Source: a virus (taxonomy: Duplodnaviria; Caudoviricetes). From it: a stretch of DNA of 42,497 bases. The stretch covers positions 1 through 42,497 of IMG/VR virus record IMGVR_UViG_3300032421_000009. One strand, 5' to 3'. Under the pieces are notes generated by a model. That model was not told the DNA's origin. It made no database searches and saw only the letters and a program-made list of their open reading frames with translations. Both the position numbers and the translations under genes were made by a program. Below are positions 11,274-42,497 of this stretch, piece by piece (position 1 is the stretch's first letter; each line of letters begins with the position of its first letter).

Positions 11274-12109
11274 CACCGCCGCCCTTCGTCGTGCTCAGCC
11301 TGCCACGCAGCCGCTCCTACTGGCTGTCGCGGTATCTGAGCTACGGCGGCTGGCATTGCGGTCACGAGGAAATCCGCCACGCGCGGACGCTGAGCGATGT
11401 CAGGGCGTGGTTGGCCCGGCCGCGCACCGGCACAGCGGAAACTGCGGCAGGGCCGTTCTGGCGGCTTCTGAGACGCCTGGCGCCGCATACCAGGGTGGCC
11501 GTCGTGCGTCGCGACCCGGCCGCAGTGTTCAACAGCCTGTTGCGGCTCGGTCTGCCGTTCGATGCCGCGGTGATGGTGCGACAGTTGCGGCGGTTCGATG
11601 CCGCCCTGGACGAGATCGAGGCGCACTGGCCAGGGGCGCTGAGCGTTACATTCGACGGTCTGCGCGAGGAGGCGACGTGCGCCCAGGTGTTCGAGCGCTG
11701 CCTCGGATTGCCGCACGATCCGGCCTGGTGGGCTTCGCTGGCGCCGCAGAACCTGCAGGCGGACATCCATGCCGTGACACGGGATATGGTGAGCAATGGC
11801 CCGCTGATCGCGCATCTGCAACGCGGTATCGGCCGGCGTGACTATACGGCCCGGCTGGAGGTGCTGGACAATGGCCAGACCTTCGCGCATCTCGACGTGC
11901 ATCGTTGGACAGCGCGATCAGCCGCTGCGATGCGTCGGGATCTCGATGCGGTCATCGCGTGGCACAGCCCGATTTACGTCACGCAGACCGCGCACCCGCA
12001 TAACGACGATTTCGACAAATGGCGCAGGTTCGTGACCATGATGGGGTTTAAGTTCCGCAACACGGCACCGAATGGATGGTCCGTCTACGTGCTCGGTGAG
12101 CAGCACTGA
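11270..12109 (+). CDS. Sulfotransferase-like (P-loop) protein with a possible GNAT-like C-terminal part
   Basis: FVVLSLPRSRSYWL...HE resembles the PAPS-binding loop; also VVRRDP and VTFDGL motifs. Confidence 0.5.
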   Translation: MTPPPFVVLSLPRSRSYWLSRYLSYGGWHCGHEEIRHARTLSDVRAWLARPRTGTAETAAGPFWRLLRRLAPHTRVAVVRRDPAAVFNSLLRLGLPFDAAVMVRQLRRFDAALDEIEAHWPGALSVTFDGLREEATCAQVFERCLGLPHDPAWWASLAPQNLQADIHAVTRDMVSNGPLIAHLQRGIGRRDYTARLEVLDNGQTFAHLDVHRWTARSAAAMRRDLDAVIAWHSPIYVTQTAHPHNDDFDKWRRFVTMMGFKFRNTAPNGWSVYVLGEQH

Positions 12110-23211: not shown

Positions 23212-23601
23212 TCAGGCGGCGCGTGCCTCCGATCGCCGCGAGGCCTTCGCCTGTCCCTTCTTCCGCTCCGAGTCGTCCTCCGGTCCAACCTCCGGCAATT
23301 CCAGTTTCTGCCTGAATGCCTCTACGAAAATCGCCAGTTCGCGGGCTAGCTGCCCTGGCACCAGCCGGTCATTGTTGAAGTAGACCCACTCCAGGGTGAT
23401 GCCGGGTAAAAGCTTCTGGAGTGCGTAGACCGTCTCGTAGCGGGGCAGCACGTAGCCGTTGACTGAGTTGGACAGGCGCTCGCGTCGCATGCCCAGTTCC
23501 GCAGCCGTGTTCTCTACTGACAAGCCGAGCTTTCGCAGGATCGCGCGCATGCGCAATCCAACCTCTTTTGGGTTGGGCTTTTCCATCATGTCCGTCACCA
23601 C
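23212..23601 (-). CDS. CI-like XRE HTH repressor
   Basis: VGLRMRAILRKLGLSVENTAAELGMRRERLSNSVNG...TLEWVYF; divergent from the cro-like gene. Confidence 0.8.
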   Translation of the reverse strand: MVTDMMEKPNPKEVGLRMRAILRKLGLSVENTAAELGMRRERLSNSVNGYVLPRYETVYALQKLLPGITLEWVYFNNDRLVPGQLARELAIFVEAFRQKLELPEVGPEDDSERKKGQAKASRRSEARAA

Positions 23602-23644
23602 TGGTTACCACCGCTTCGCCACGCGGCCCCTGAGTATTGCACGT

Positions 23645-23702
23645 CGACAGATTATCTGTCGCCGCCCGTCTTGGCCATCATCTTGCCGGCAAATCTCTTG
23701 TC
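23645..23702. promoter_or_regulatory. Right operators (OR-like), GACA-N7-TGTC
   Basis: Perfect palindrome CGACAGAT-T-ATCTGTCG (23645-23661) and GGCA-AATCTCT-TGTC (23688-23702) between the divergent regulators. Confidence 0.65.
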
Positions 23703-23715
23703 AGGCTAGTATGTC

Positions 23716-23943
23716 ATGACAATGACGACGGCCAAGCTGTTCCGGCTGTTTGGGGGACGGGAGATCGTGATGGCTGTAACCGGCGCCACCCGGCAGGCGG
23801 CGAACCACTGGATGCACAACGGGGTGCCTTACCGGCACTGGCCGGCGATCCGTGCTGCGGCGGCTGACGCTGGCATTCCGGGCATCACCGACGCGGTGCT
23901 GGCCTCCACGCGGCCGCGGTCGCGCCGGAAGGCCGCCGAATGA
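23716..23943 (+). CDS. Cro-like HTH regulator
   Basis: LFGGREIVMAVTGATRQAANHWMHNGVPYRHW. Confidence 0.75.
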   Translation: MTMTTAKLFRLFGGREIVMAVTGATRQAANHWMHNGVPYRHWPAIRAAAADAGIPGITDAVLASTRPRSRRKAAE

Positions 23944-24416
23944 GCGTCCACAACCCAGGGCGCCAGCCGCATGAGTGGGGCGAGGCCGCCACGGCGCAAC
24001 TGCGCCAGCGCTGGGCGGACGGCGCGGTAACCGCGCTGATCGGCGCCGAGCTTGGCATCAGCAAATCGGCGGTGGTCGGCAAGGCGCGTCGGCTGGGTCT
24101 GCCGCCGCGGGCCTCGCCGATCCATGCCGCCGGCGAGCCTCCGGTGGTGCGCCCCCGCAAGCGCCCGACGCTGCCGGCGCTGGCCGCACCCGCACCGAAA
24201 CCACCGCCGCCGCCTGTGGTGGTTGCGCCGCCGCCGCCGGTCGAGCCTGTGGCGCCGCGGGGCTGCCAGTATCCGCGTGGCAGCCGGCCGCACTGGGCCT
24301 GGTGCGACGCGGCGGTCGTCGGCAGCGGGCCGTACTGCGCGGCGCATCGGGCGGTCTGTTACCTGCGGCCCGGCACCCGCGCCTGGATGCAGGAACGCGC
24401 TGAGGAGGCGGCATGA
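23940..24416 (+). CDS. gcrA: GcrA-family cell-cycle transcription regulator
   Basis: W..LRQRWADG...IGAELGISKSAVVGKARRLGLPPR HTH and C-terminal CQYP...WC...PYCAAH. Confidence 0.85.
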   Translation: MSVHNPGRQPHEWGEAATAQLRQRWADGAVTALIGAELGISKSAVVGKARRLGLPPRASPIHAAGEPPVVRPRKRPTLPALAAPAPKPPPPPVVVAPPPPVEPVAPRGCQYPRGSRPHWAWCDAAVVGSGPYCAAHRAVCYLRPGTRAWMQERAEEAA

Positions 24417-25691: not shown

Positions 25692-25903
25692 CCAGCCAGG
25701 CGCCGTGGAAGGGCTGGCTCCGCAAGGGCGATACGGCAGGCACGGTCACCGGAGAACTGGTTGATTCCTGGGGTTGGCGCGTGGCGTTGACCGGCACATT
25801 CGTCGCAACCTCGGGGTCCTATGCGCTGACCGGCGTTCTTGGAGAGCCTCCGTCGAGCCTCGTTATCGGGGCGATTGACGAAGAAGCGGAGCCACCGAAG
25901 TGA
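25688..25903 (+). CDS. Hypothetical protein
   Basis: ATGA-coupled ORF. Confidence 0.55.
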   Translation: MTSQAPWKGWLRKGDTAGTVTGELVDSWGWRVALTGTFVATSGSYALTGVLGEPPSSLVIGAIDEEAEPPK

Positions 25904-26033
25904 CCCCGCCCCACCCACGCCTAGCCGTTGCCGGACGAGCCGTCACGCGCCTCGCCGCCGTGACCAGCCTGGACCTGCCTTGCGTGGTCCCGCCGCGCCA
26001 TGCCGTCGCCACGCTAACCCTGGGGAGGAAGTA

Positions 26034-26342
26034 ATGCCATCCAGCTTGACTGCGGAACAGGCGGGCATTGTGAAGGGCCTGCTGGCGCGCGGAGAAAAGC
26101 AGCATGATGTGGCGGCATTCTTCGGCGTGAATGCCGGACGGGTGGCGGAGGTCGCCAAGGGCTACAAGTTTGCCGACGTGCCACCCTCTCCCAAGCGGGA
26201 GTTGCCGACACCGGCGGTCGTCAGCCTGGGCTATTCGTCGCATGTCGTGTTGCAGGCGCTCGGTATTATCGAGATCGCAATCCAGTCGGCGCGCGCGCGC
26301 ATCCTGGCGGGGCATGATTTCGAGCAGGGCCGCAAACATTGA
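26034..26342 (+). CDS. HTH protein
   Basis: GGAGG SD; GEKQHDVAAFFGVNAGRVAEV. Confidence 0.65.
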   Translation: MPSSLTAEQAGIVKGLLARGEKQHDVAAFFGVNAGRVAEVAKGYKFADVPPSPKRELPTPAVVSLGYSSHVVLQALGIIEIAIQSARARILAGHDFEQGRKH

Positions 26343-27352
26343 GTGCGGCGCTCGATCTTGGCGTAAACGAGACAGTCGCCGAGTGGGAAAGCGAAGGGCT
26401 GGAGCTTGGCGAGCGGGAGCGTTCGGCCGCTTCGCTGATGTGGGACATTGGCGATTGGTGGAACCGCGGTGAACGCTACGGCGGGCGGGCGAAGATCGTC
26501 ACTGCCAGCGACTGGACCGGGCCAAGCTACGCCAGCTGCCGCAGGGCCGGATCAGTCGCGGAGCGTTTCGGATCTGTTAGTCGTCTAACAGATTTGAGCT
26601 TTGAGCATCACGCTATCGTCGCGCCATTGCCAGACGAGCAGGCAGTGCCCTTGCTGCAATGGTGCCGGGATGCGCCGCAGCCGCGTTCGGTGCAGGAATT
26701 GCGCACCCGCGTGAAGCAGCTTGCGCGTGCTGCGCGCGAGGCGGAACTGGGTGATGCACAGGCCGCATTGAGCGGGCGCTACGGCGTAATCTATGCGGAC
26801 CCGCCATGGCGCTTCGAGCCATACTCTCGCGAGACCGGCATGGATCGGGCGGCGGATAATCACTACCCGACCATGACGCTGGATGACATCCGTTCATTGC
26901 CGGTTCCGGCGGCCGACGATGCGGTGCTGTTTCTGTGGGCCACGTCGCCAATGCTGCCGGAAGCGATAGAGGTCATGACCGGCTGGGGGTTTACCTACAA
27001 GAGCCATTTCATCTGGGTAAAGGATCGTATTGGGACGGGCTACTGGAGCCGCAACCGCCACGAGTTGCTGTTGGTCGGAACCAGAGGCGAGATTCCGGCG
27101 CCGGCGCCCGGCGAGCAGTTCGTCTCGGTGATCAACGCGGCGGCCGGCGAGCACAGCGCCAAGCCAGCGGCATTTGCCGAGATGATCGAGGAGATGTTCC
27201 CAAGCCTGCCGGCCATCGAGCTGTTCGCGCGCGGGCCGCGGCTGGGCTGGGACGTGTGGGGCAATGAGTCAAACTGGGGAGGAACTTATGCCACTAGACC
27301 AGACCAAGACCAAAACGCGCCGGCTGAAAATTCCCAAGCTGGAACAGGATGA
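26339..27352 (+). CDS. MT-A70-family N6-adenine methyltransferase with N-terminal extension
   Basis: YGVIYADPPW, HYPTM, LFLWAT, HSAKP and IELFAR..GWDVWGNE. Confidence 0.9.
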   Translation: MSAALDLGVNETVAEWESEGLELGERERSAASLMWDIGDWWNRGERYGGRAKIVTASDWTGPSYASCRRAGSVAERFGSVSRLTDLSFEHHAIVAPLPDEQAVPLLQWCRDAPQPRSVQELRTRVKQLARAAREAELGDAQAALSGRYGVIYADPPWRFEPYSRETGMDRAADNHYPTMTLDDIRSLPVPAADDAVLFLWATSPMLPEAIEVMTGWGFTYKSHFIWVKDRIGTGYWSRNRHELLLVGTRGEIPAPAPGEQFVSVINAAAGEHSAKPAAFAEMIEEMFPSLPAIELFARGPRLGWDVWGNESNWGGTYATRPDQDQNAPAENSQAGTG

Positions 27353-27995
27353 AGTCGAAGCGCTCAAGAACGGTGCGGCACCGCCCGAGATCATCCGCGT
27401 TACCCGCCCGCGGCTGCGCATTGCCGCCATCCAGATCAAGGGCATCGCGCCCTACGTGCAGCACGCGTTCTCCGAAAAGCAGCGCAAGGCCATGGAGGAA
27501 ACGCAGCGCCAGGGCCAGCAGGCGCGCGGCAAACGGACCCGCGTGCCCAAGGATTTCGAGGCGGTGTACGAGGCCGCCAAGCACTACGCCAGGGAGGGTT
27601 GGATCGGCATTCCGGCGCCGGCCTTCCGCAATGCCTGCATCGATGCCTGCCGCCTGGTCGGCTTCAAGATGACGCACGCCAAATGCAGCATCTTCATTGA
27701 GCCGGATGGTTTCGACCGCAACGATGGCACGCCGCTGGTACGTATCCAGGGCGAACCGCGCATCCATGAGGCGTCGGTGCGCAACGAGAGCGGCGTGGCC
27801 GATATCAGGTGGCGGCCGATGTGGGAGCAATGGGGCGCCATCGTCAACGTCCAGTGGGACGAGGACCAGTTCAGCGCGACGGATGTGCTCAACCTGATGC
27901 TGCGCGCTGGCCTGCAGGTCGGCATCGGCGAGGGGCGGCCGTATAGCCCCAACTCAAACGGCATGGGTTGGGGCAGATTTGAAGTAGTGGAGTAG
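27288..27995 (+). CDS. Cas7/RAMP-like RNA-binding protein (candidate Vipr-type effector)
   Basis: RAMP-like pattern: N-terminal strand IQIKGIAPYVQH, IPAPAFRNACIDA helix, and C-terminal glycine-rich loop AGLQVGIGEGRP...GMGWGRFEV; GGGGAGGA SD; flanked by pentamer arrays. Confidence 0.7.
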   Translation: MPLDQTKTKTRRLKIPKLEQDEVEALKNGAAPPEIIRVTRPRLRIAAIQIKGIAPYVQHAFSEKQRKAMEETQRQGQQARGKRTRVPKDFEAVYEAAKHYAREGWIGIPAPAFRNACIDACRLVGFKMTHAKCSIFIEPDGFDRNDGTPLVRIQGEPRIHEASVRNESGVADIRWRPMWEQWGAIVNVQWDEDQFSATDVLNLMLRAGLQVGIGEGRPYSPNSNGMGWGRFEVVE

Positions 27996-28010
27996 TAACA
28001 ACGAACTATA

Positions 28011-28078
28011 GGCATGGCATGGCGAGGCAGGCAAGGCGGGGCATCGCGGGATTGGGCGAGGCGGGGCTTGGCGGGCAT
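28011..28078 (+). ncRNA. Short GGC-NN pentamer array (candidate guide RNA)
   Basis: ggcat ggcat ggcga GGCA ggcaa ggcgg ggcat cgcgg gattg ggcga ggcgg ggctt ggcg ggcat. Confidence 0.65.
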
Positions 28079-28090
28079 GGAGTGAGGTTG

Positions 28091-28543
28091 ATGAGCGACA
28101 GGACTGACAATCTGGCGAAAGAGCTGCTGGCGTTGAAGGGCGAGGATGGCCTGATCAACGTGGCGAAGGCCGAGCAGTGGGCGAAGCGTCATCCGAAGTC
28201 TTCGCTGTACGCGCATCTTGAGTGGGACAACGAGGTCGCCGGCGAGAAGTATAGACACTGGCAGATACGCTCGTTGATCTCGGTGCATATCGTCGATGCC
28301 GAGGGATCGCGGCGGCTGGTGCATCTGTCAATTGACAGCAGGAGCGGCGGCTACCGCCCGATCAACGACGTGCTCGGACAAAAGGAGCTGCGGGAGATCA
28401 TGTTGGAGGATGCGCTGGGCGAGTTGGAACGGATGCAGCGCAAGTATGCGCGGCTGCAGGAATTGGATGGGGTCTGGGCTGCGCGCGATCAGGTCAAGCG
28501 CAGCAGGCGGGCGAGCGCTGCCGTCGCGGAAGCAGCGGATTGA
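28091..28543 (+). CDS. Conserved-looking phage protein, partner of the RAMP-like gene
   Basis: HPKSSLYAHLEWDNEVAGEKYRHWQIRSLI...GGYRP...ALGELERMQRKY; sits between the two arrays; ATG at 28091 with GGAG/GAGG SD. Confidence 0.75.
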   Translation: MSDRTDNLAKELLALKGEDGLINVAKAEQWAKRHPKSSLYAHLEWDNEVAGEKYRHWQIRSLISVHIVDAEGSRRLVHLSIDSRSGGYRPINDVLGQKELREIMLEDALGELERMQRKYARLQELDGVWAARDQVKRSRRASAAVAEAAD

Positions 28544-28544
28544 T

Positions 28545-29098
28545 GGCGTGGCAAGTCCGGTCAGGGCCGGGGCAGGCTAGTCGCGGCAGGCATGGCGAGG
28601 CGAGGCTTGGCCCGACCAGGATCGGCTCGGCGGGGCAGGCCCGGCAAGACTGGACGAGGCTGGGCTTGGCTACGCCAGGCACGGCAGGCGAGGCAGGGCT
28701 TGGTCGGGCGGGGCAGGGTACGGCTAGTCAGGGCAGGCTGGGCAAGGCGCGGCTGGGCGAGGCCCGGCAGGCTGGGCATGGCACGGTCTGGCTTGGCGCG
28801 CCTCGTCGCGGCCCGGCTCGGCAGGCACGGCGCGGACGGTCCCGGCGGGTTCCGGCAAGGCACGCCTTGGCTTGGCCAGGCAGGCGGGGCACGACGAGGC
28901 ACGTCCGGGCTTGGCATGGCCAGTCGCGGCTTGGCAGGCCAGGCGGGGCAACTCTCGGCAGGGCCGGGTCCGGTGCGGCCGGGCTGGGCAGGCGGGGCGA
29001 GGCTCGTCGGGGCAGGCTGGGCTTGGCAGGCCCCTGCGGGGAAGGGCGGGACGTGGCATGGTGCGGCAGGCGCGGCAGGTCTCGGCAGGGTTTGGGCC
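28545..29098 (+). ncRNA. Long GG(C/T)-NN pentamer array punctuated by GGCA (candidate guide-RNA array)
   Basis: Strict 5-nt register. 4-nt GGCA breaks at 28585, 28634, 28683, 28732, 28766, 28820, 28879, 28933 and 28987; degenerates after ~29010. Confidence 0.8.
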
Positions 29099-29124
29099 AC
29101 GGAGGGGCGGCAACGCCTCTCCGT
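29099..29124 (+). terminator. GNRA hairpin closing the array
   Basis: ACGGAGGGGCG-GCAA-CGCCTCTCCGT (11-bp stem with one G-U). No U-tract, so it may be a 3' processing/stability stem rather than a terminator. Confidence 0.55.
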
Positions 29125-29311
29125 CGCTGCGTGACGTGAGATGACGCCGTTGCGAAACACGCAGAATCAGCGCACAACAGAAATGGCGCCCAGTTGGAGC
29201 TGGACGCCATCTGTAACTTTGGACTTGGCTGGAGATGGAGAGCCAAGCGGAAACGGAAGCTGCAAACCCGTTTTCGCACACCTCTCCGGCCATGACAAGA
29301 GAGGTGTGCCT

Positions 29312-29614
29312 ATGACATATCCGAGCATTGCCGCCATCCAGGCGGTCGTCTGCGCGCATTTCCGCGTCACCCACCTGGATCTGCTGTCCCGCCGCCGGGG
29401 ACGCGCGATCTCGTGCCCGCGCCAGGTCGGCATGTGGCTTGCGCGCCACACCACGCCCCTGAGCCTGCCGGAGATCGGGCGGGAGTTTCAGCGGGACCAC
29501 ACGACGGTGATGCACGCGGTGGACCGGATCGACCGCGAGATCGCCGCCATTACACCACACGGGGCAATCGCGCTGCAGCTGAGAACAGCGCTGGAACAAG
29601 GGGAAGCGGCATGA
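29312..29614 (+). CDS. DnaA C-terminal (domain IV) HTH protein
   Basis: DLLSRRR...PRQVGMWLAR..T.LSLPEIGREFQRDHTTVMHAV. Confidence 0.85.
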   Translation: MTYPSIAAIQAVVCAHFRVTHLDLLSRRRGRAISCPRQVGMWLARHTTPLSLPEIGREFQRDHTTVMHAVDRIDREIAAITPHGAIALQLRTALEQGEAA

Positions 29615-30405
29615 GCAACTGCAACGGGCACCGCTGGTCCAAATTCTGGTGGCGGGATCATCAGGGTGACGCGGCGCTGCGGGCCTGCAGCCTGGCCGCA
29701 CGCGGCTACTGGATGGAATTGCTGTGCGTGGCGCACGAGGCGACGCCGATTGGCCACGTCCTGCTCAATGGCCGCGTCCCAACCTATCGGCAGAAGGCAG
29801 CCATTGCGGGTTGCACCGAGAAGGAGGCGCAGCGGCTCGAGGTTGAGTTGGAGGAGGCCGGGGTATTCAGCCGGACCGACGATGGCACGATCTATAGCCG
29901 CAGAATGGTCAAGGACGCTGCCCAATCACAGGCTGGCGCTGAGGCCGTCAAGAAGCGATGGGATGCCGCCAAACCTAATACCCCCCCTAATAGGGTGGCT
30001 AATGGGGAGGCCCATAGGGGGGCTACGCCAACCCCTACTACTAAGAAGCTAGAAGTAGAGTCAGAGAAAGAGGAGACACCTGTCGGTGTCTCTCCGCGCG
30101 CACGCGCGAAAACACCGAAACAAATCCTGCCCGAGAGTTGGGAGCCTGGGCCGAAGGAGGTCCAGCTCGGGCACCAGCTCGGGCTGTCAGCCGTTGAAAT
30201 CGCCAGGGAAACCGAGCGAATGCGGGATTGGGCGGCAGCCAAAGCCGCAGCCTACGCCGACTGGCACGCCTTCTTCCGCAACTGGCTCCGCGATGCCGTG
30301 AACCGCCAGCGCCAGGAGAAAACCCAGCCAGTAACCACCGACGAACTGCGCTCCCAATGGGGCCTGCCAACCTTCCTCGGACCCAACGGCAGGCTGCTGT
30401 CATGA
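29611..30405 (+). CDS. Replication initiator (lambda O-analogous)
   Basis: WSKFWWRDH..D..LRACSLAARGYWMELLC...IYSRRMVKD N-domain, internal repeats, and a DWHAFFRNW C-domain. Confidence 0.72.
   Translation: MSNCNGHRWSKFWWRDHQGDAALRACSLAARGYWMELLCVAHEATPIGHVLLNGRVPTYRQKAAIAGCTEKEAQRLEVELEEAGVFSRTDDGTIYSRRMVKDAAQSQAGAEAVKKRWDAAKPNTPPNRVANGEAHRGATPTPTTKKLEVESEKEETPVGVSPRARAKTPKQILPESWEPGPKEVQLGHQLGLSAVEIARETERMRDWAAAKAAAYADWHAFFRNWLRDAVNRQRQEKTQPVTTDELRSQWGLPTFLGPNGRLLS
29973..30044. repeat. Degenerate 12-bp iterons, putative replication origin
   Basis: acctaatacccc/ccctaatagggt/ggctaatgggga/ggcccatagggg/ggctacgccaac/ccctactactaa inside the initiator gene. Confidence 0.55.
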
Positions 30406-32672: not shown

Positions 32673-32911
32673 CTACACTCGTCCATACCGTAGCTACGCG
32701 CGCCACTACACAGCGGACAGGTGCTGATTGCGCTGCTTGGTATATACGGCGCCGTCTGCATCGCCGGCTGGTGCGCGCTGATCCTCGGCGCACGCTGCGA
32801 TGATTGCTGATTAGGCGCGTAATGCCTCCCCAGGTGGCGCCTGATGGGCACGGGCGGTTGCCCGACACAGCCGCCCGCCGCTCAACCACACAACACACAC
32901 CGGAGACACCG

Positions 32912-33448
32912 ATGCGCCCGCTGCTGCTCGCCGCCACGGCACTGCTCGCCACCGCGCCAGCCTATGCCGCGCCAATCGACGCCGGCAGCGTCATGAATAT
33001 CGTCGGCAACGCCACATTCAGCGCCACCGCCATCAGCTTCACGTCGCCCGCCAATCTCGTGACCGGAACCGGCGTATACACAGCGCTCGGCACCTGCGTC
33101 GGCTGCGTCGATGTATCCACACCCGTCACCTATAACCCGTTCACGCCGGTCGCCGAGCTGTTCAGCGCCACCAACAACGGACTGACGGCGACGGTCAGCG
33201 TCACGGCGCAGCTCGAAGCGCCGGACTACACCGGCAACACGCTGCTCATCGTGGACGCGGCGCTGCTGACGCTCAGCGGCTTCGATCCGACACCCGGCCG
33301 GCTCGCGCTGACGCTCAACCAGGACACCGGACAGATCAGCGGCTCGTTCTCGTCCACCGTGCAGGGCATCAGCGTGCCGGAGCCTGCGACGCTGGCGCTG
33401 CTCGGCATCGGCGCGCTCGGCCTCGGGCTGGCGCGGCGGAAGGCGTAG
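32912..33448 (+). CDS. PEP-CTERM sorting-domain protein 1
   Basis: Signal peptide; C-terminal VPEPATLALLGIGALGLGLARRKA. Confidence 0.88.
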   Translation: MRPLLLAATALLATAPAYAAPIDAGSVMNIVGNATFSATAISFTSPANLVTGTGVYTALGTCVGCVDVSTPVTYNPFTPVAELFSATNNGLTATVSVTAQLEAPDYTGNTLLIVDAALLTLSGFDPTPGRLALTLNQDTGQISGSFSSTVQGISVPEPATLALLGIGALGLGLARRKA

Positions 33449-33714: not shown

Positions 33715-33950
33715 TGCCGCGCTGGCGTGTCGAGATGCCGCCGCTGCGCTCGGACGCGGCGACTCTGCCGGTGGACGTCGAGGCCGACAGTGTGGCGATT
33801 GCCGGCGGCGCGCTGGTGTTCATGGACCTGGGCCACATCGTGCGCGCGCTCGCGCCAGGCCAGTGGCTGCACCTGACGCTGCTCGGCGACGACGCGCCAG
33901 ATGATGCAGGCGACCGCTACACCGCCGCCACCACGCAGGCGTGCCGGTGA
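33714..33950 (+). CDS. Hypothetical protein
   Basis: TGATG-coupled ORF. Confidence 0.55.
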   Translation: MPRWRVEMPPLRSDAATLPVDVEADSVAIAGGALVFMDLGHIVRALAPGQWLHLTLLGDDAPDDAGDRYTAATTQACR

Positions 33951-35182
33951 CGATCCGGCTTCTCACCGGCGATTGCCGCGACGTGCTGGCTACGCTGCCC
34001 GAGGCGTCGGTGCATTGCGTCGTCACCAGCCCGCCGTATTACGCACTACGCTCGTATCTACACGCCGAGCATCCGGACAAGCGCCGCGAGTTGGGCAGCG
34101 AGGCCACGCCCGCCGAGTATCTGGCGGCGATGGTGGAGGTGTTCCGCGCGGTGCGCCGCGTGCTGCGCGACGACGGCACATGCTGGGTGAATATCGGCGA
34201 TAGTTACAGCGACGGCGGCTCTGGGGCCAACAAGCGGCAGCGCAATCAGCCGAACGAAAACCGAGATGGCACGGCAGACACCAAGGCGCAGCGTGGTGTG
34301 TTGCCAGCCGTGAGTGATGGGGCCAAGCCGAAAGACCTGCTGCTGATGCCGGCGCGGCTGGCGCTGGCGCTGCAGGCGGACGGCTGGTGGGTGCGCTCCG
34401 ACATCATCTGGCACAAGCCAAACCCGATGCCGGAGTCATGCACCGACCGGCCCACGAGCGCGCACGAGCATGTATTCCTGCTCAGCAAGCGGGCGCGCTA
34501 CTTCTACGATGCGGATGCGGTGCGGGAGGCCAACACGGAGGCAACCGCTGACCGCTATGCTGCGGGTTACAACGCATCGTGGAAGCGTGCGCAGCTTGCG
34601 TCTGTCGCCGATGAGCGAACGGAAGGTTTCGCAGGAACGCCAGATGCGGCGCGGGGCCGCAACCTCCGGAACGTCTGGACGATTGCCACGCACGCCTACA
34701 GCGACGCCCACTTCGCCACGTTCCCGCCCCAGTTGGTCGAGCGGTGCATCCGTGCCGGCACCAGCGAGCGCGGCTGCTGCGCGGCGTGCGGGGCGCCGTG
34801 GGTGCGGCAGACCACAACGTCGTTTGAGCCTACTCAGAACCCGGCATTTCCGAAGGCCGGTCAGAAGGGCGTGGATGCATCCAATGGCTGGGGCGAGGTG
34901 CCGCGTGGCAGAGTAAGCGCCACCACCACCGGCTGGTCGCCAGGGTGCCTGTGTAACGCAGGCACCCAACCCTGCACGGTGCTGGACCCATTCGTCGGCT
35001 CCGGTACCACGGCACTGGTCGCGGATCGCCTCCAGCGCCACGCCATCGGGATCGACCTGAGCATCGACTATGCGGCGATGGCGCAGCGGCGGCTCGAAGC
35101 GGACGCGCCGCTGTTCACGTCGGTGCCGGTGCATCCGGTGGAGACGGAGATCGCCGACCTGTTCAGTGCCGCGGCGGACTGA
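33941..35182 (+). CDS. DNA N4-cytosine/N6-adenine methyltransferase (beta class)
   Basis: VVTSPPY, IIWHKPNPMPES, HFATFP and VLDPFVGSGTT. Confidence 0.92.
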   Translation: MPVTIRLLTGDCRDVLATLPEASVHCVVTSPPYYALRSYLHAEHPDKRRELGSEATPAEYLAAMVEVFRAVRRVLRDDGTCWVNIGDSYSDGGSGANKRQRNQPNENRDGTADTKAQRGVLPAVSDGAKPKDLLLMPARLALALQADGWWVRSDIIWHKPNPMPESCTDRPTSAHEHVFLLSKRARYFYDADAVREANTEATADRYAAGYNASWKRAQLASVADERTEGFAGTPDAARGRNLRNVWTIATHAYSDAHFATFPPQLVERCIRAGTSERGCCAACGAPWVRQTTTSFEPTQNPAFPKAGQKGVDASNGWGEVPRGRVSATTTGWSPGCLCNAGTQPCTVLDPFVGSGTTALVADRLQRHAIGIDLSIDYAAMAQRRLEADAPLFTSVPVHPVETEIADLFSAAAD

Positions 35183-42340: not shown

Positions 42341-42497
42341 CGCTCCGGTTCGCCGGTTCGGTGACGGAAAACCACAGTGACAATCCGATGAGCGAAACAC
42401 AGCAACAGCCAGCTACCGAAGAGCGCGTCCCGCAGTCGCAGCACGTCCTGCAGAACGAGGAGAACGAGGACGCCACCCTACCGCTGCAACAGCCGCC
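42341..42497. repeat. Terminal direct repeat, right copy
   Basis: Matches 1-157 with one mismatch. Confidence 0.97.

Follow-up and report, generated by a model that had tools for sequence, protein, structure and literature searches.

A phage-borne VIPR locus with a staggered array of candidate guide cassettes

The locus that we describe here is a VIPR system borne by a soil phage, a type of system that is itself already in print (2026 preprints), as the first-pass annotation of this DNA had suggested. We think it highly probable that it belongs to the staggered-array form of VIPR, in which cassettes of about ten units would each act as one guide silencing a rival phage. Set against the text and legends of the preprint that describes such arrays (bioRxiv 10.64898/2026.04.26.720920), the locus offers a compact test case for how tail-less staggered arrays yield separate guides, and for how a VIPR repertoire changes without Cas1. 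One transcript holding a dozen programmable, PAM-free cassettes four bases apart would also be a natural format for multiplexed silencing.

The locus and its setting

The window, by which we mean the whole stretch of 42,497 nucleotides that was analysed, comes from a virus record with portal, terminase and capsid genes that is 88% complete (CheckV). On its + strand the locus runs in the order vipr, short array, vap, main array and terminal hairpin, with the following features:

27288..27995, + strand: vipr, a 235-aa stand-alone RAMP protein with RRM core, thumb and Gly-rich loop
27957..27979, + strand: U2-matched site in the Gly-rich-loop codons of vipr (sense strand, wobble bases skipped)
28011-28078: short array, 68 nt, between vipr and vap
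28011..28025, + strand: U1, a 3-unit stub of the short array
28026-28029: GGCA junction ending U1
28030..28069, + strand: U2, an 8-unit candidate guide
28091..28543, + strand: vap, a 150-aa accessory protein (intact ORF)
28545..29093, + strand: main array, 549 nt, with 12 cassettes and 11 GGCA junctions (from register parse and strain comparison)
Main-array cassettes by start (units): 28545 (8), 28589 (9), 28638 (9), 28687 (9), 28736 (6), 28770 (10), 28824 (11), 28883 (10), 28937 (10), 28991 (4), 29015 (10), 29069 (5)
29099..29124, + strand: hairpin with an 11-bp stem and a GCAA tetraloop, closing the main array

The two ORFs of 235 and 150 aa, the 68-nt array, the array of about 550 nt and the GNRA hairpin all lie where the first-pass annotation had put them, and its remark that it recognised no cas1, cas2 or classical CRISPR repeat agrees with our scans: cas1, cas2 and integrase are absent from the PHROGs and Pfam results (54 predicted ORFs; 55 proteins in one scan, 14 in another), and no CRISPR-type repeat was found among the window's tandem repeats. 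Class 1 CRISPR-Cas has a cas operon and a repeat-spacer array, whereas the window has neither; what it does have is the minimal VIPR locus (vipr with or without vap, and without cas genes or a CRISPR array), encoded by a virus as VIPR systems mostly are. Rfam found no family in the window, and a search of 25800-29700 turned up neither a sigma-70-type promoter on the + strand nor an intrinsic terminator. Positions 27900-29250 are identical, with zero mismatches or gaps, in contigs of two public runs that are possible sources of the record, and the 4-nt slips discussed below are therefore not assembly errors of the record.

A stand-alone RAMP protein and its partner

The vipr ORF is preceded by a ribosome-binding-like GGAGG, and the C-terminal Gly-rich loop that first drew attention to the protein is present as quoted. 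Its predicted structure (pLDDT 83) resembles the Csm3/Cas7 RAMPs, with CRISPR complexes of types III and VII as the top Foldseek matches (E about 1e-4) and VIA Z scores of 10.4, 10.1 and 9.5 to Cmr/Csm chains. In a profile search the protein matched the Vipr of SUSP1 (36pp_D, E 7.3e-5), which is the sole solved structure matched by sequence below E 0.2. The RAMP fold suspected at first reading is supported. SUSP1 is an Escherichia phage with a type II VIPR (PDB 36pp; bioRxiv 10.64898/2026.04.26.720927, 10.64898/2026.10.15.759431), and hhalign scored the pair at 91.8% over 172 columns, with identity of about 21%. Through this low-identity alignment, the RNA/DNA-contact residues H17, R39, K82, R138, D177 and R179 of SUSP1 map to H59, R83, K127, R176, E215 and R217 here, the last three being invariant across 114 homologs. 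By the same low-identity alignment, six of the eight GGY-/DNA-contact residues compared are either unchanged or replaced conservatively; W178 of SUSP1, which stacks on G2, becomes G216 and K33 becomes Q77. No Pfam or PADLOC family matched Vipr; in PHROGs, Vipr and Vap fall in the unknown-function families 4652 and 15946.

Class 1 RAMPs polymerise along a guide. Those of CRISPR complexes (Csm3, Cmr4, Cas7) share the RRM, thumb and Gly-rich-loop fold (Z up to 10.4), but they pair contiguously with a flip every sixth base, in contrast to the 5-nt gapped code here. The closest solved folds in the searched structure libraries are indeed CRISPR Csm3/Cmr/Cas7 chains, and solitary-repeat anti-CRISPR RNAs are known, so one might suppose that a RAMP with repeats is a decoy or anti-CRISPR element with no role in DNA targeting. 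We give that idea almost no credence, as the nearest solved sequence is a Vipr, the repeats are unlike CRISPR repeats, and what the NN positions say about targets emerges under one particular skip rule.

Vap is modelled (pLDDT 82) with a predicted N-terminal winged-helix-like domain (1-93) and a long C-terminal helix. Its fold matches are weak and mostly to winged-helix DNA binders (E 0.45 or higher; Z 6.4 or lower), with weak coiled-coil matches as well, and these were the only ones to set beside the predicted nuclease or helicase Vap of types III-V. Neither Pfam nor PADLOC holds a family for it, an ESM Atlas search returned unnamed viral clusters only, and a profile comparison with SUSP1 Vap1 gave a probability of 0.2%, with no detectable relationship; a vap homolog adjoins vipr in 61 of 75 homolog clusters. 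Type II systems (SUSP1, P. fulva) have Vap1 and a conserved, structured 3' tail on each separate vrRNA, and the window has neither. By elimination, and as far as the types are set out in the text and legends of the staggered-array preprint, this is likely a type VI or VII system, with a non-enzymatic, DNA-binding Vap unrelated to Vap1.

Punctuated arrays, here and across the clade

The pentamer arrays noticed at first reading are real. In the main array 55 GGY pairs stand at spacing 5, against a mean of 5.9 and a maximum of 12 in 300 dinucleotide shuffles, and the short array has 8 against a mean of 0.8 and a maximum of 4; the best 200-nt segment holds 25 such pairs, and segments away from the arrays at most 6. 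They are not, however, the plain continuous runs that had been described, since GGCA junctions reset the 5-nt register, and the triplet is degenerate in roughly one unit in four. What lies beside vipr is the array form known from VIPR, with at least four tandem YNNGG repeats, constant GGY and variable NN. Most of the cassettes (12 in the main array and 2 between the genes) have 9-11 units, three of those in the main array are short (4-6 units), and after U2 come a variant slip, GGCG, and the ribosome-binding site of vap.

The expectation that homologs would have such arrays too was borne out: GGY-NN arrays adjoin vipr in 102 of the 109 loci with at least 1.3 kb downstream, and in at least 68 of the 75 homolog clusters (90% identity). 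All 16 NN dinucleotides are present in the clade, at 3-10% each. Slips occur at least once in 62 of the 75 clusters and 753 of 909 4-nt slips read GGCAGGC; junction-to-junction segments are a multiple of 5 in 553 of 645 cases, and among the 537 cassettes bounded by junctions, 346 are 9-11 units long. Between strains with identical Vipr, whole cassettes have been gained, lost or swapped at junctions. Could the tract simply be a neutral microsatellite, or else a low-complexity coding ORF (199 aa, 28540-29139)? The main array is indeed spanned by open frames of 180-199 aa, but a 5-nt period that resets after 4 nt does not follow codons, a codon model dropped the frames, and cassette swaps of 5n+4 nt shift them between strains. 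The arrays are, moreover, restricted to the neighbourhood and strand of vipr: the rest of the 3.5 Mb gave 25 calls, and some of these are long vipr-adjacent arrays reaching past the distance filter. We regard both versions of this explanation as exceedingly improbable.

The terminal hairpin (fold z -2.7, with 2 of 200 shuffles equally good) is found also in three strains with identical Vipr (L095, L096 and L098), and is possibly a 3' cap or transcript end. As a feature of the clade the GNRA hairpin did not hold up, being present in only 5 of 74 tails, and a conserved structured 3' tail is likewise unsupported among these (z < -2 in 13/74, against 3/74 controls).

Two published systems are the natural comparisons. 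In staggered vrRNA arrays the guides abut with a 1-nt overlap (bioRxiv 10.64898/2026.04.26.720920, Fig. S18 legend), which equals the 4-nt GGCA slip here; in both, vipr, vap and GGY/NN repeats are found on a phage, and our cassette length of 9-11 units is within the published 9-16. In its text and legends, that preprint backs ribozyme-spaced and single-guide loci, though not the staggered ones, with RNA-seq and analyses targets for types II, III and V; what is reported here on junction sequence, cassette exchange and cassette-bounded targets goes beyond them. With SUSP1 the window shares a homologous Vipr, in which most of the GGY-reading residues appear to be kept as far as the low-identity alignment shows, and its clade follows the same wobble-aligned skip rule. 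SUSP1, however, has 4 separate guides that each end in a 3' pseudoknot tail, and it lacks 4-nt slips, whereas the window has 14 abutting cassettes with no tails between them and one terminal hairpin, and a Vipr with a 40-aa N-terminal extension, a longer Gly-rich loop and Gly for W178.

What the clade's guides match

On the evidence of sequence matching, the NN positions carry target information at clade level under the published 1-nt-skip rule; the gap in the target that the first-pass annotation foresaw is supported, and can be refined to one skipped base per NN. In a first target database, whose construction favoured vipr genes, and with only identical cassettes collapsed, 18 of 567 cassettes had a skip-1 match of at least 90%, against 1-5 in eight controls. 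Among 60 extra genome stretches, not chosen for vipr, the count was 3 of 567 (one of them 20/20) against 0-1, a replication that rests on those 3 matches. Against 168 vipr genes, 6 of 652 cassettes matched, and none in four controls; all six matches are sense and wobble-skipping, and the cassette's own vipr gene is always the worse match. Guides compared with other arrays and tails gave 5 matches of at least 85% (0-1 in controls), two of which were actually vipr ends.

It is worth asking whether the array might be one long guide, or be read in overlapping windows through the GGCA junctions, given that a single structured tail closes the entire array and that the locus shows no obvious processing nuclease. 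Yet among 17 strong matches that end at a junction, agreement falls to chance level beyond the cassette (9 of 34 junction bases; 14-31 of 102 bases of the next cassette), and strains exchange whole cassettes at these very points, so we consider this reading very improbable. The gapped GGY/NN model proposed at the outset keeps its core, in line with the published VIPR mechanism and the clade-wide skip-1 matches; its single guide gives way to separate cassettes of about ten units.

The search covered phage DNA, and the targets identified in it are phage genes, which is consistent with the phage half of the original suggestion that competing phage or host DNA could be silenced. The matches point to an arms race among soil phages, in which guides appear to be aimed at the vipr, vap and replication genes of rivals; type II guides directed against the vipr of other phages have been described (10.64898/2026.04.26.720927; 10.64898/2026.10.15.759431).

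How the locus might work

In the staggered-array mechanism that we favour, each cassette would be one guide RNA that places a Vipr filament on rival phage DNA and silences the target. By analogy with type II systems, one protomer would bind each GGY, the NN would pair with the target while every third target base is skipped, and target binding would repress transcription without cutting. The operon is presumably co-transcribed with early/replication genes. The 4-nt junction may break the register of the filament, and in this manner separate the guides or expose a processing site, taking the place of the 3' tail that each type II guide has. Vap would serve as a DNA-binding helper, and the guide repertoire could be remodelled via recombination between repeats.

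The window's own guides

We think that U2 may be vipr-directed, judging by its best match, which is its own vipr (14/16 NN bases); none of 166 other vipr genes matches it as well. In IMG/VR the full U2 pattern occurs at 27 loci, which form 13 clusters and include no vipr gene; one of these matches reads in frame in what we take to be a portal gene. A U2-type guide that best matches its own vipr would imply RNA-guided negative feedback on the operon, and this forms part of a bolder, rather doubtful proposal: that GGCA-punctuated arrays are a tail-less, Cas1-free guide memory in which the slip alone delimits guides, whole cassettes are gained, lost and recombined from strain to strain, and the cassette that comes first after vipr is dedicated to guiding against vipr.

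No guide of the window had a target at 19/20 or better in related loci, the 60 extra stretches or exact-core IMG/VR scans (five guides), M1-M4 and M11 having been searched against related vipr loci and the 60 extra stretches. Guides without a found target, several truncated cassettes and degenerate triplets in about a quarter of units might together suggest a decaying VIPR locus, its guides now targetless and the system idle. Against this, neither ORF is broken, and strains with differing arrays have a 100% identical Vipr; degenerate units are usual across the clade, where they continue to match targets (45/46 in strong matches, with no evident relation between degenerate triplets and the skipped target base), and databases as small as these yielded a target for only about 3% of all guides in the clade. 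Decay is, in our judgement, very improbable.

Among individual candidates, the exact 8-unit core of M7 hit 2 IMG/VR loci, the best at 18/22 (and 0 of 50 whole records at 3 mismatches or fewer), and that of M6 hit 17, the best at 18/20; the 7-unit core of M9 reached 18/20 at best in 120 of about 240 loci, which is chance level. These were rejected. The 7-unit core of M8 hit 113 IMG/VR loci, the best at 17/20. Six M8 matches, at 16/20, fall in a terminase family that shares 42-46% identity with the window's terminase, with 47 further terminase relatives at 16/20 or below, and we keep this family as no more than a weak lead. As for the phage of the window, the clade's matches place its own lineage among the guide targets.

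Locus and published background

The stretch from vipr to the hairpin downstream of its arrays is a real VIPR locus, of a kind already known. VIPR joins a RAMP protein (Vipr) to an accessory gene (vap) and vrRNAs of 9–16 GGY/NN repeats (10.64898/2026.04.26.720920); in four preprints the vrRNAs are described as recognising dsDNA with one base skipped per NN and as repressing transcription (10.64898/2026.04.26.720920; 10.64898/2026.04.26.720927; 10.64898/2026.10.15.759431; 10.64898/2026.10.21.760802). The first-pass annotation had likened the locus to such RAMP plus GGY/NN systems, and they do exist in print; further literature searches added nothing to these defining preprints.

Elements of the VIPR locus
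27288–27995, +, vipr (ORF)
28011–28078, +, short array (GGY-NN periodicity)
28091–28543, +, vap (ORF)
28545–29093, +, long (main) array (GGY-NN periodicity)
29099–29124, +, hairpin with GCAA loop (fold)

All the elements picked out by eye, namely the RAMP-like gene, the 68-nt short array, the partner gene, the long array and the GNRA hairpin, are present. Array periodicity is far above chance, with 55 GGY pairs at spacing 5 in the long array and 8 in the short one (shuffle maxima 12 and 4), and the letters of the array region are identical, ungapped, in two public runs, both possible sources of this DNA.

The Vipr and Vap proteins

Vipr relatives number 2256 among 2413 candidates. An AlphaFold model built from 114 sequences (pLDDT 83) finds type III and type VII CRISPR RAMP chains in Foldseek (24 matches at E <= 0.001), and VIA-align gives a best Z of 10.4 (148 residues, rmsd 3.7), its rows 1–29 being CRISPR entries without exception, so that the RAMP fold proposed for 27288–27995 is supported by the predicted model. 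Sequence searches of solved structures place a single entry below E 0.2, the Vipr of SUSP1 (E 0.004 with a single sequence, 7.3e-5 with a profile; hhalign 91.8% over 172 columns). In the alignment SUSP1 H17, R39, K82, R138, D177 and R179 correspond to H59, R83, K127, R176, E215 and R217 here, whereas W178 becomes G216 and K33 becomes Q77.

The Vap model is confident as a prediction, yet its fold matches are weak, mainly winged-helix DNA binders for residues 1–93 and coiled coils for the remainder. No similarity was detected to Vap1, which accompanies the type II VIPR of SUSP1. Since DNA-binding vaps are assigned to types II, VI and VII and enzymes to III–V (10.64898/2026.04.26.720920), type VI or VII is likely by elimination. 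The data tables S1–S4 of that preprint cover 667 systems, among which this clade may already figure.

Arrays across the clade

For comparison, 170 loci were fetched from viral, genome and metagenome collections (in two of the retrievals, the 80 best out of 312 and out of 124), three annotated phage loci were added, and L001, L011, L012 and L136 were left out as copies of the window. As the annotation anticipated, GGYNN arrays accompany vipr homologs: an array adjoins vipr in 102 of the 109 loci with at least 1.3 kb downstream, and in at least 68 of the 75 clusters formed at 90% identity, a floor because five of the seven misses carry long or degenerate arrays by eye. A Vap homolog occurs in 61 of these clusters and a 4-nt slip in 62. 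GGCA-punctuated arrays are present in named phages, cultured mycobacteriophages included, where the neighbouring Vipr homologs are labelled hypothetical proteins (cyanophage Cy-LDV1, L009, 3111–4050; mycobacteriophage Quico, L010, 1614–1854), and Quico is a ready laboratory model.

The slips read GGCAGGC in 753 of 909 cases, and junction-to-junction segments are multiples of 5 in 553/645. Parsing by register yields 922 unique cassettes, with 9–11 units in 346 of the 537 that are junction-bounded; the window has 12 in the main array (M1–M12) and two between vipr and vap (U1, U2). Three loci with an identical Vipr and about 97% identical DNA (L095, L096, L098) share M6–M9 with it, apart from some single-base changes. 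M2–M5 are missing from L095 and L098, which have another cassette in their place, and the 3' end of the array differs in all three. Array content therefore changes in steps of whole cassettes and through internal deletion, for which recombination between repeats would be a route. In the four records L095–L098, all of them encoding an identical Vipr, a small ORF replaces the short array, so the slot between vipr and vap is exchangeable.

The target code

Each cassette of 9–14 units was converted to a gapped pattern, and the fetched loci, with arrays masked, were scored for matches to it. At >= 90% the skip-1 pattern matches for 18/567 cassettes, against 2, 4 and 5 for skips of 0, 2 and 3 and 1–3 for five controls made by reversing, swapping or shuffling; three skip-1 matches are perfect (18/18, 20/20 and 22/22). 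This database was vipr-rich by construction, and therefore 60 other stretches (0.94 Mb) were fetched as a second set, where skip-1 gives 3/567 at that threshold, one of them 20/20, and eight controls 0–1. When 168 vipr genes are the sole targets, 90% is reached by 6 of 652 cassettes and by no control; each of the six matches on the sense strand, leaves out the wobble base and fits its own vipr less well. The gapped target proposed earlier thus holds as a code at clade level, while for the window's own guides the searches found no firm target.

In 17 strong matches that end at a junction, agreement falls to chance beyond it (junction bases 9/34, next cassette 14–31/102), and on this sequence evidence we read one cassette as one guide and GGCA as punctuation. 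Units with degenerate triplets (GAC, GGA, CGC, GTC) in strong clade matches still agree with the target at NN in 45/46, so a strict GGY seems dispensable at some units.

Guides of two phages, L022 and L104, converge on one site in L034 (~11700–11735, −; 17/18 and 20/22), whose translation by hand gives a motif that we take to resemble a phage DNA helicase. A 20/20 match links an L146 guide to a gene of the L023 genome (L468, near 8324, +), L023 being a close relative with a vipr region ~88% identical in DNA.

The legend of Fig. S18 in 10.64898/2026.04.26.720920 describes 'staggered' arrays with guides overlapping by 1 nt, for which the text of that preprint reports no RNA-seq; the present analysis adds computational support for this staggered-cassette model. 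The available text of the four preprints contains no such cassette analysis, though their figures and tables may.

Mechanism and targets in this lineage

Fold, array anatomy, cassette dynamics and clade-level code were computed here, and the molecular steps are borrowed from the published SUSP1 descriptions, by which one Vipr protomer would sit on each GGY, form an R-loop triplex and repress without cleavage. The 4-nt junction might stop the filament and, taking over the part of a 3' tail, delimit or expose guides; Vap would help on DNA, and the system could serve phage–phage competition. Foreign guides do match this lineage: an L109 cassette matches the vipr of L095 (17/18), and one from L114 the window's DnaA-HTH gene near 29454 (20/22).

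U2 scores 14/16 on the codons for the Gly-rich loop of its own vipr, a level reached anywhere in the genome by 6 of 300 shuffles (non-significant alone after 11 guides) and, among 171 vipr genes, only in its own and four encoding the identical protein. Clade-wide, 7/652 cassettes come within 2 of 16 bases of a full match to their own vipr over the best eight units (controls 0, 2, 0, 0), and five of the seven lie <= 60 nt after vipr, a zone holding 30/652 cassettes (Fisher p 3e-6, for a pattern seen post hoc in related loci). U2 might be an autoregulatory guide. In four of these seven cases, however, a foreign vipr gives the better fit over the same eight units, and guides aimed at competitors' vipr are already described in 10.64898/2026.04.26.720920 and 10.64898/2026.10.15.759431, so that rival-directed guides are the simpler reading. 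A terminase family as the target of M8 (16/20) is a weak lead.

Genome setting

Classed as a virus record, the window encodes portal, terminase, capsid, repressor-like and replication genes, and the VIPR locus lies in the rightward early/replication region, downstream of an MT-A70 methyltransferase gene.

Neighbouring features
26339–27352, +, MT-A70 methyltransferase gene, overlapping the vipr start
33941–35179, second DNA methyltransferase
23215–24413 and 29312–29611, divergent repressor/cro-like pair, GcrA-family gene and DnaA C-terminal HTH gene

This last group suggests a temperate phage of an alphaproteobacterium; PHROGs names no integrase in the window. Positions 1–157 and 42341–42497 form a 157-nt terminal overlap with a one-base difference in a homopolymer, and the sequence is probably that of a nearly complete circular genome, though the record is classed linear. 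An ORF at 32804–33448 (+), without a PHROGs family, ends in a VPEP motif followed by a hydrophobic stretch and basic residues, a tail that we take to resemble a PEP-CTERM sorting signal and an unusual cargo for a phage.
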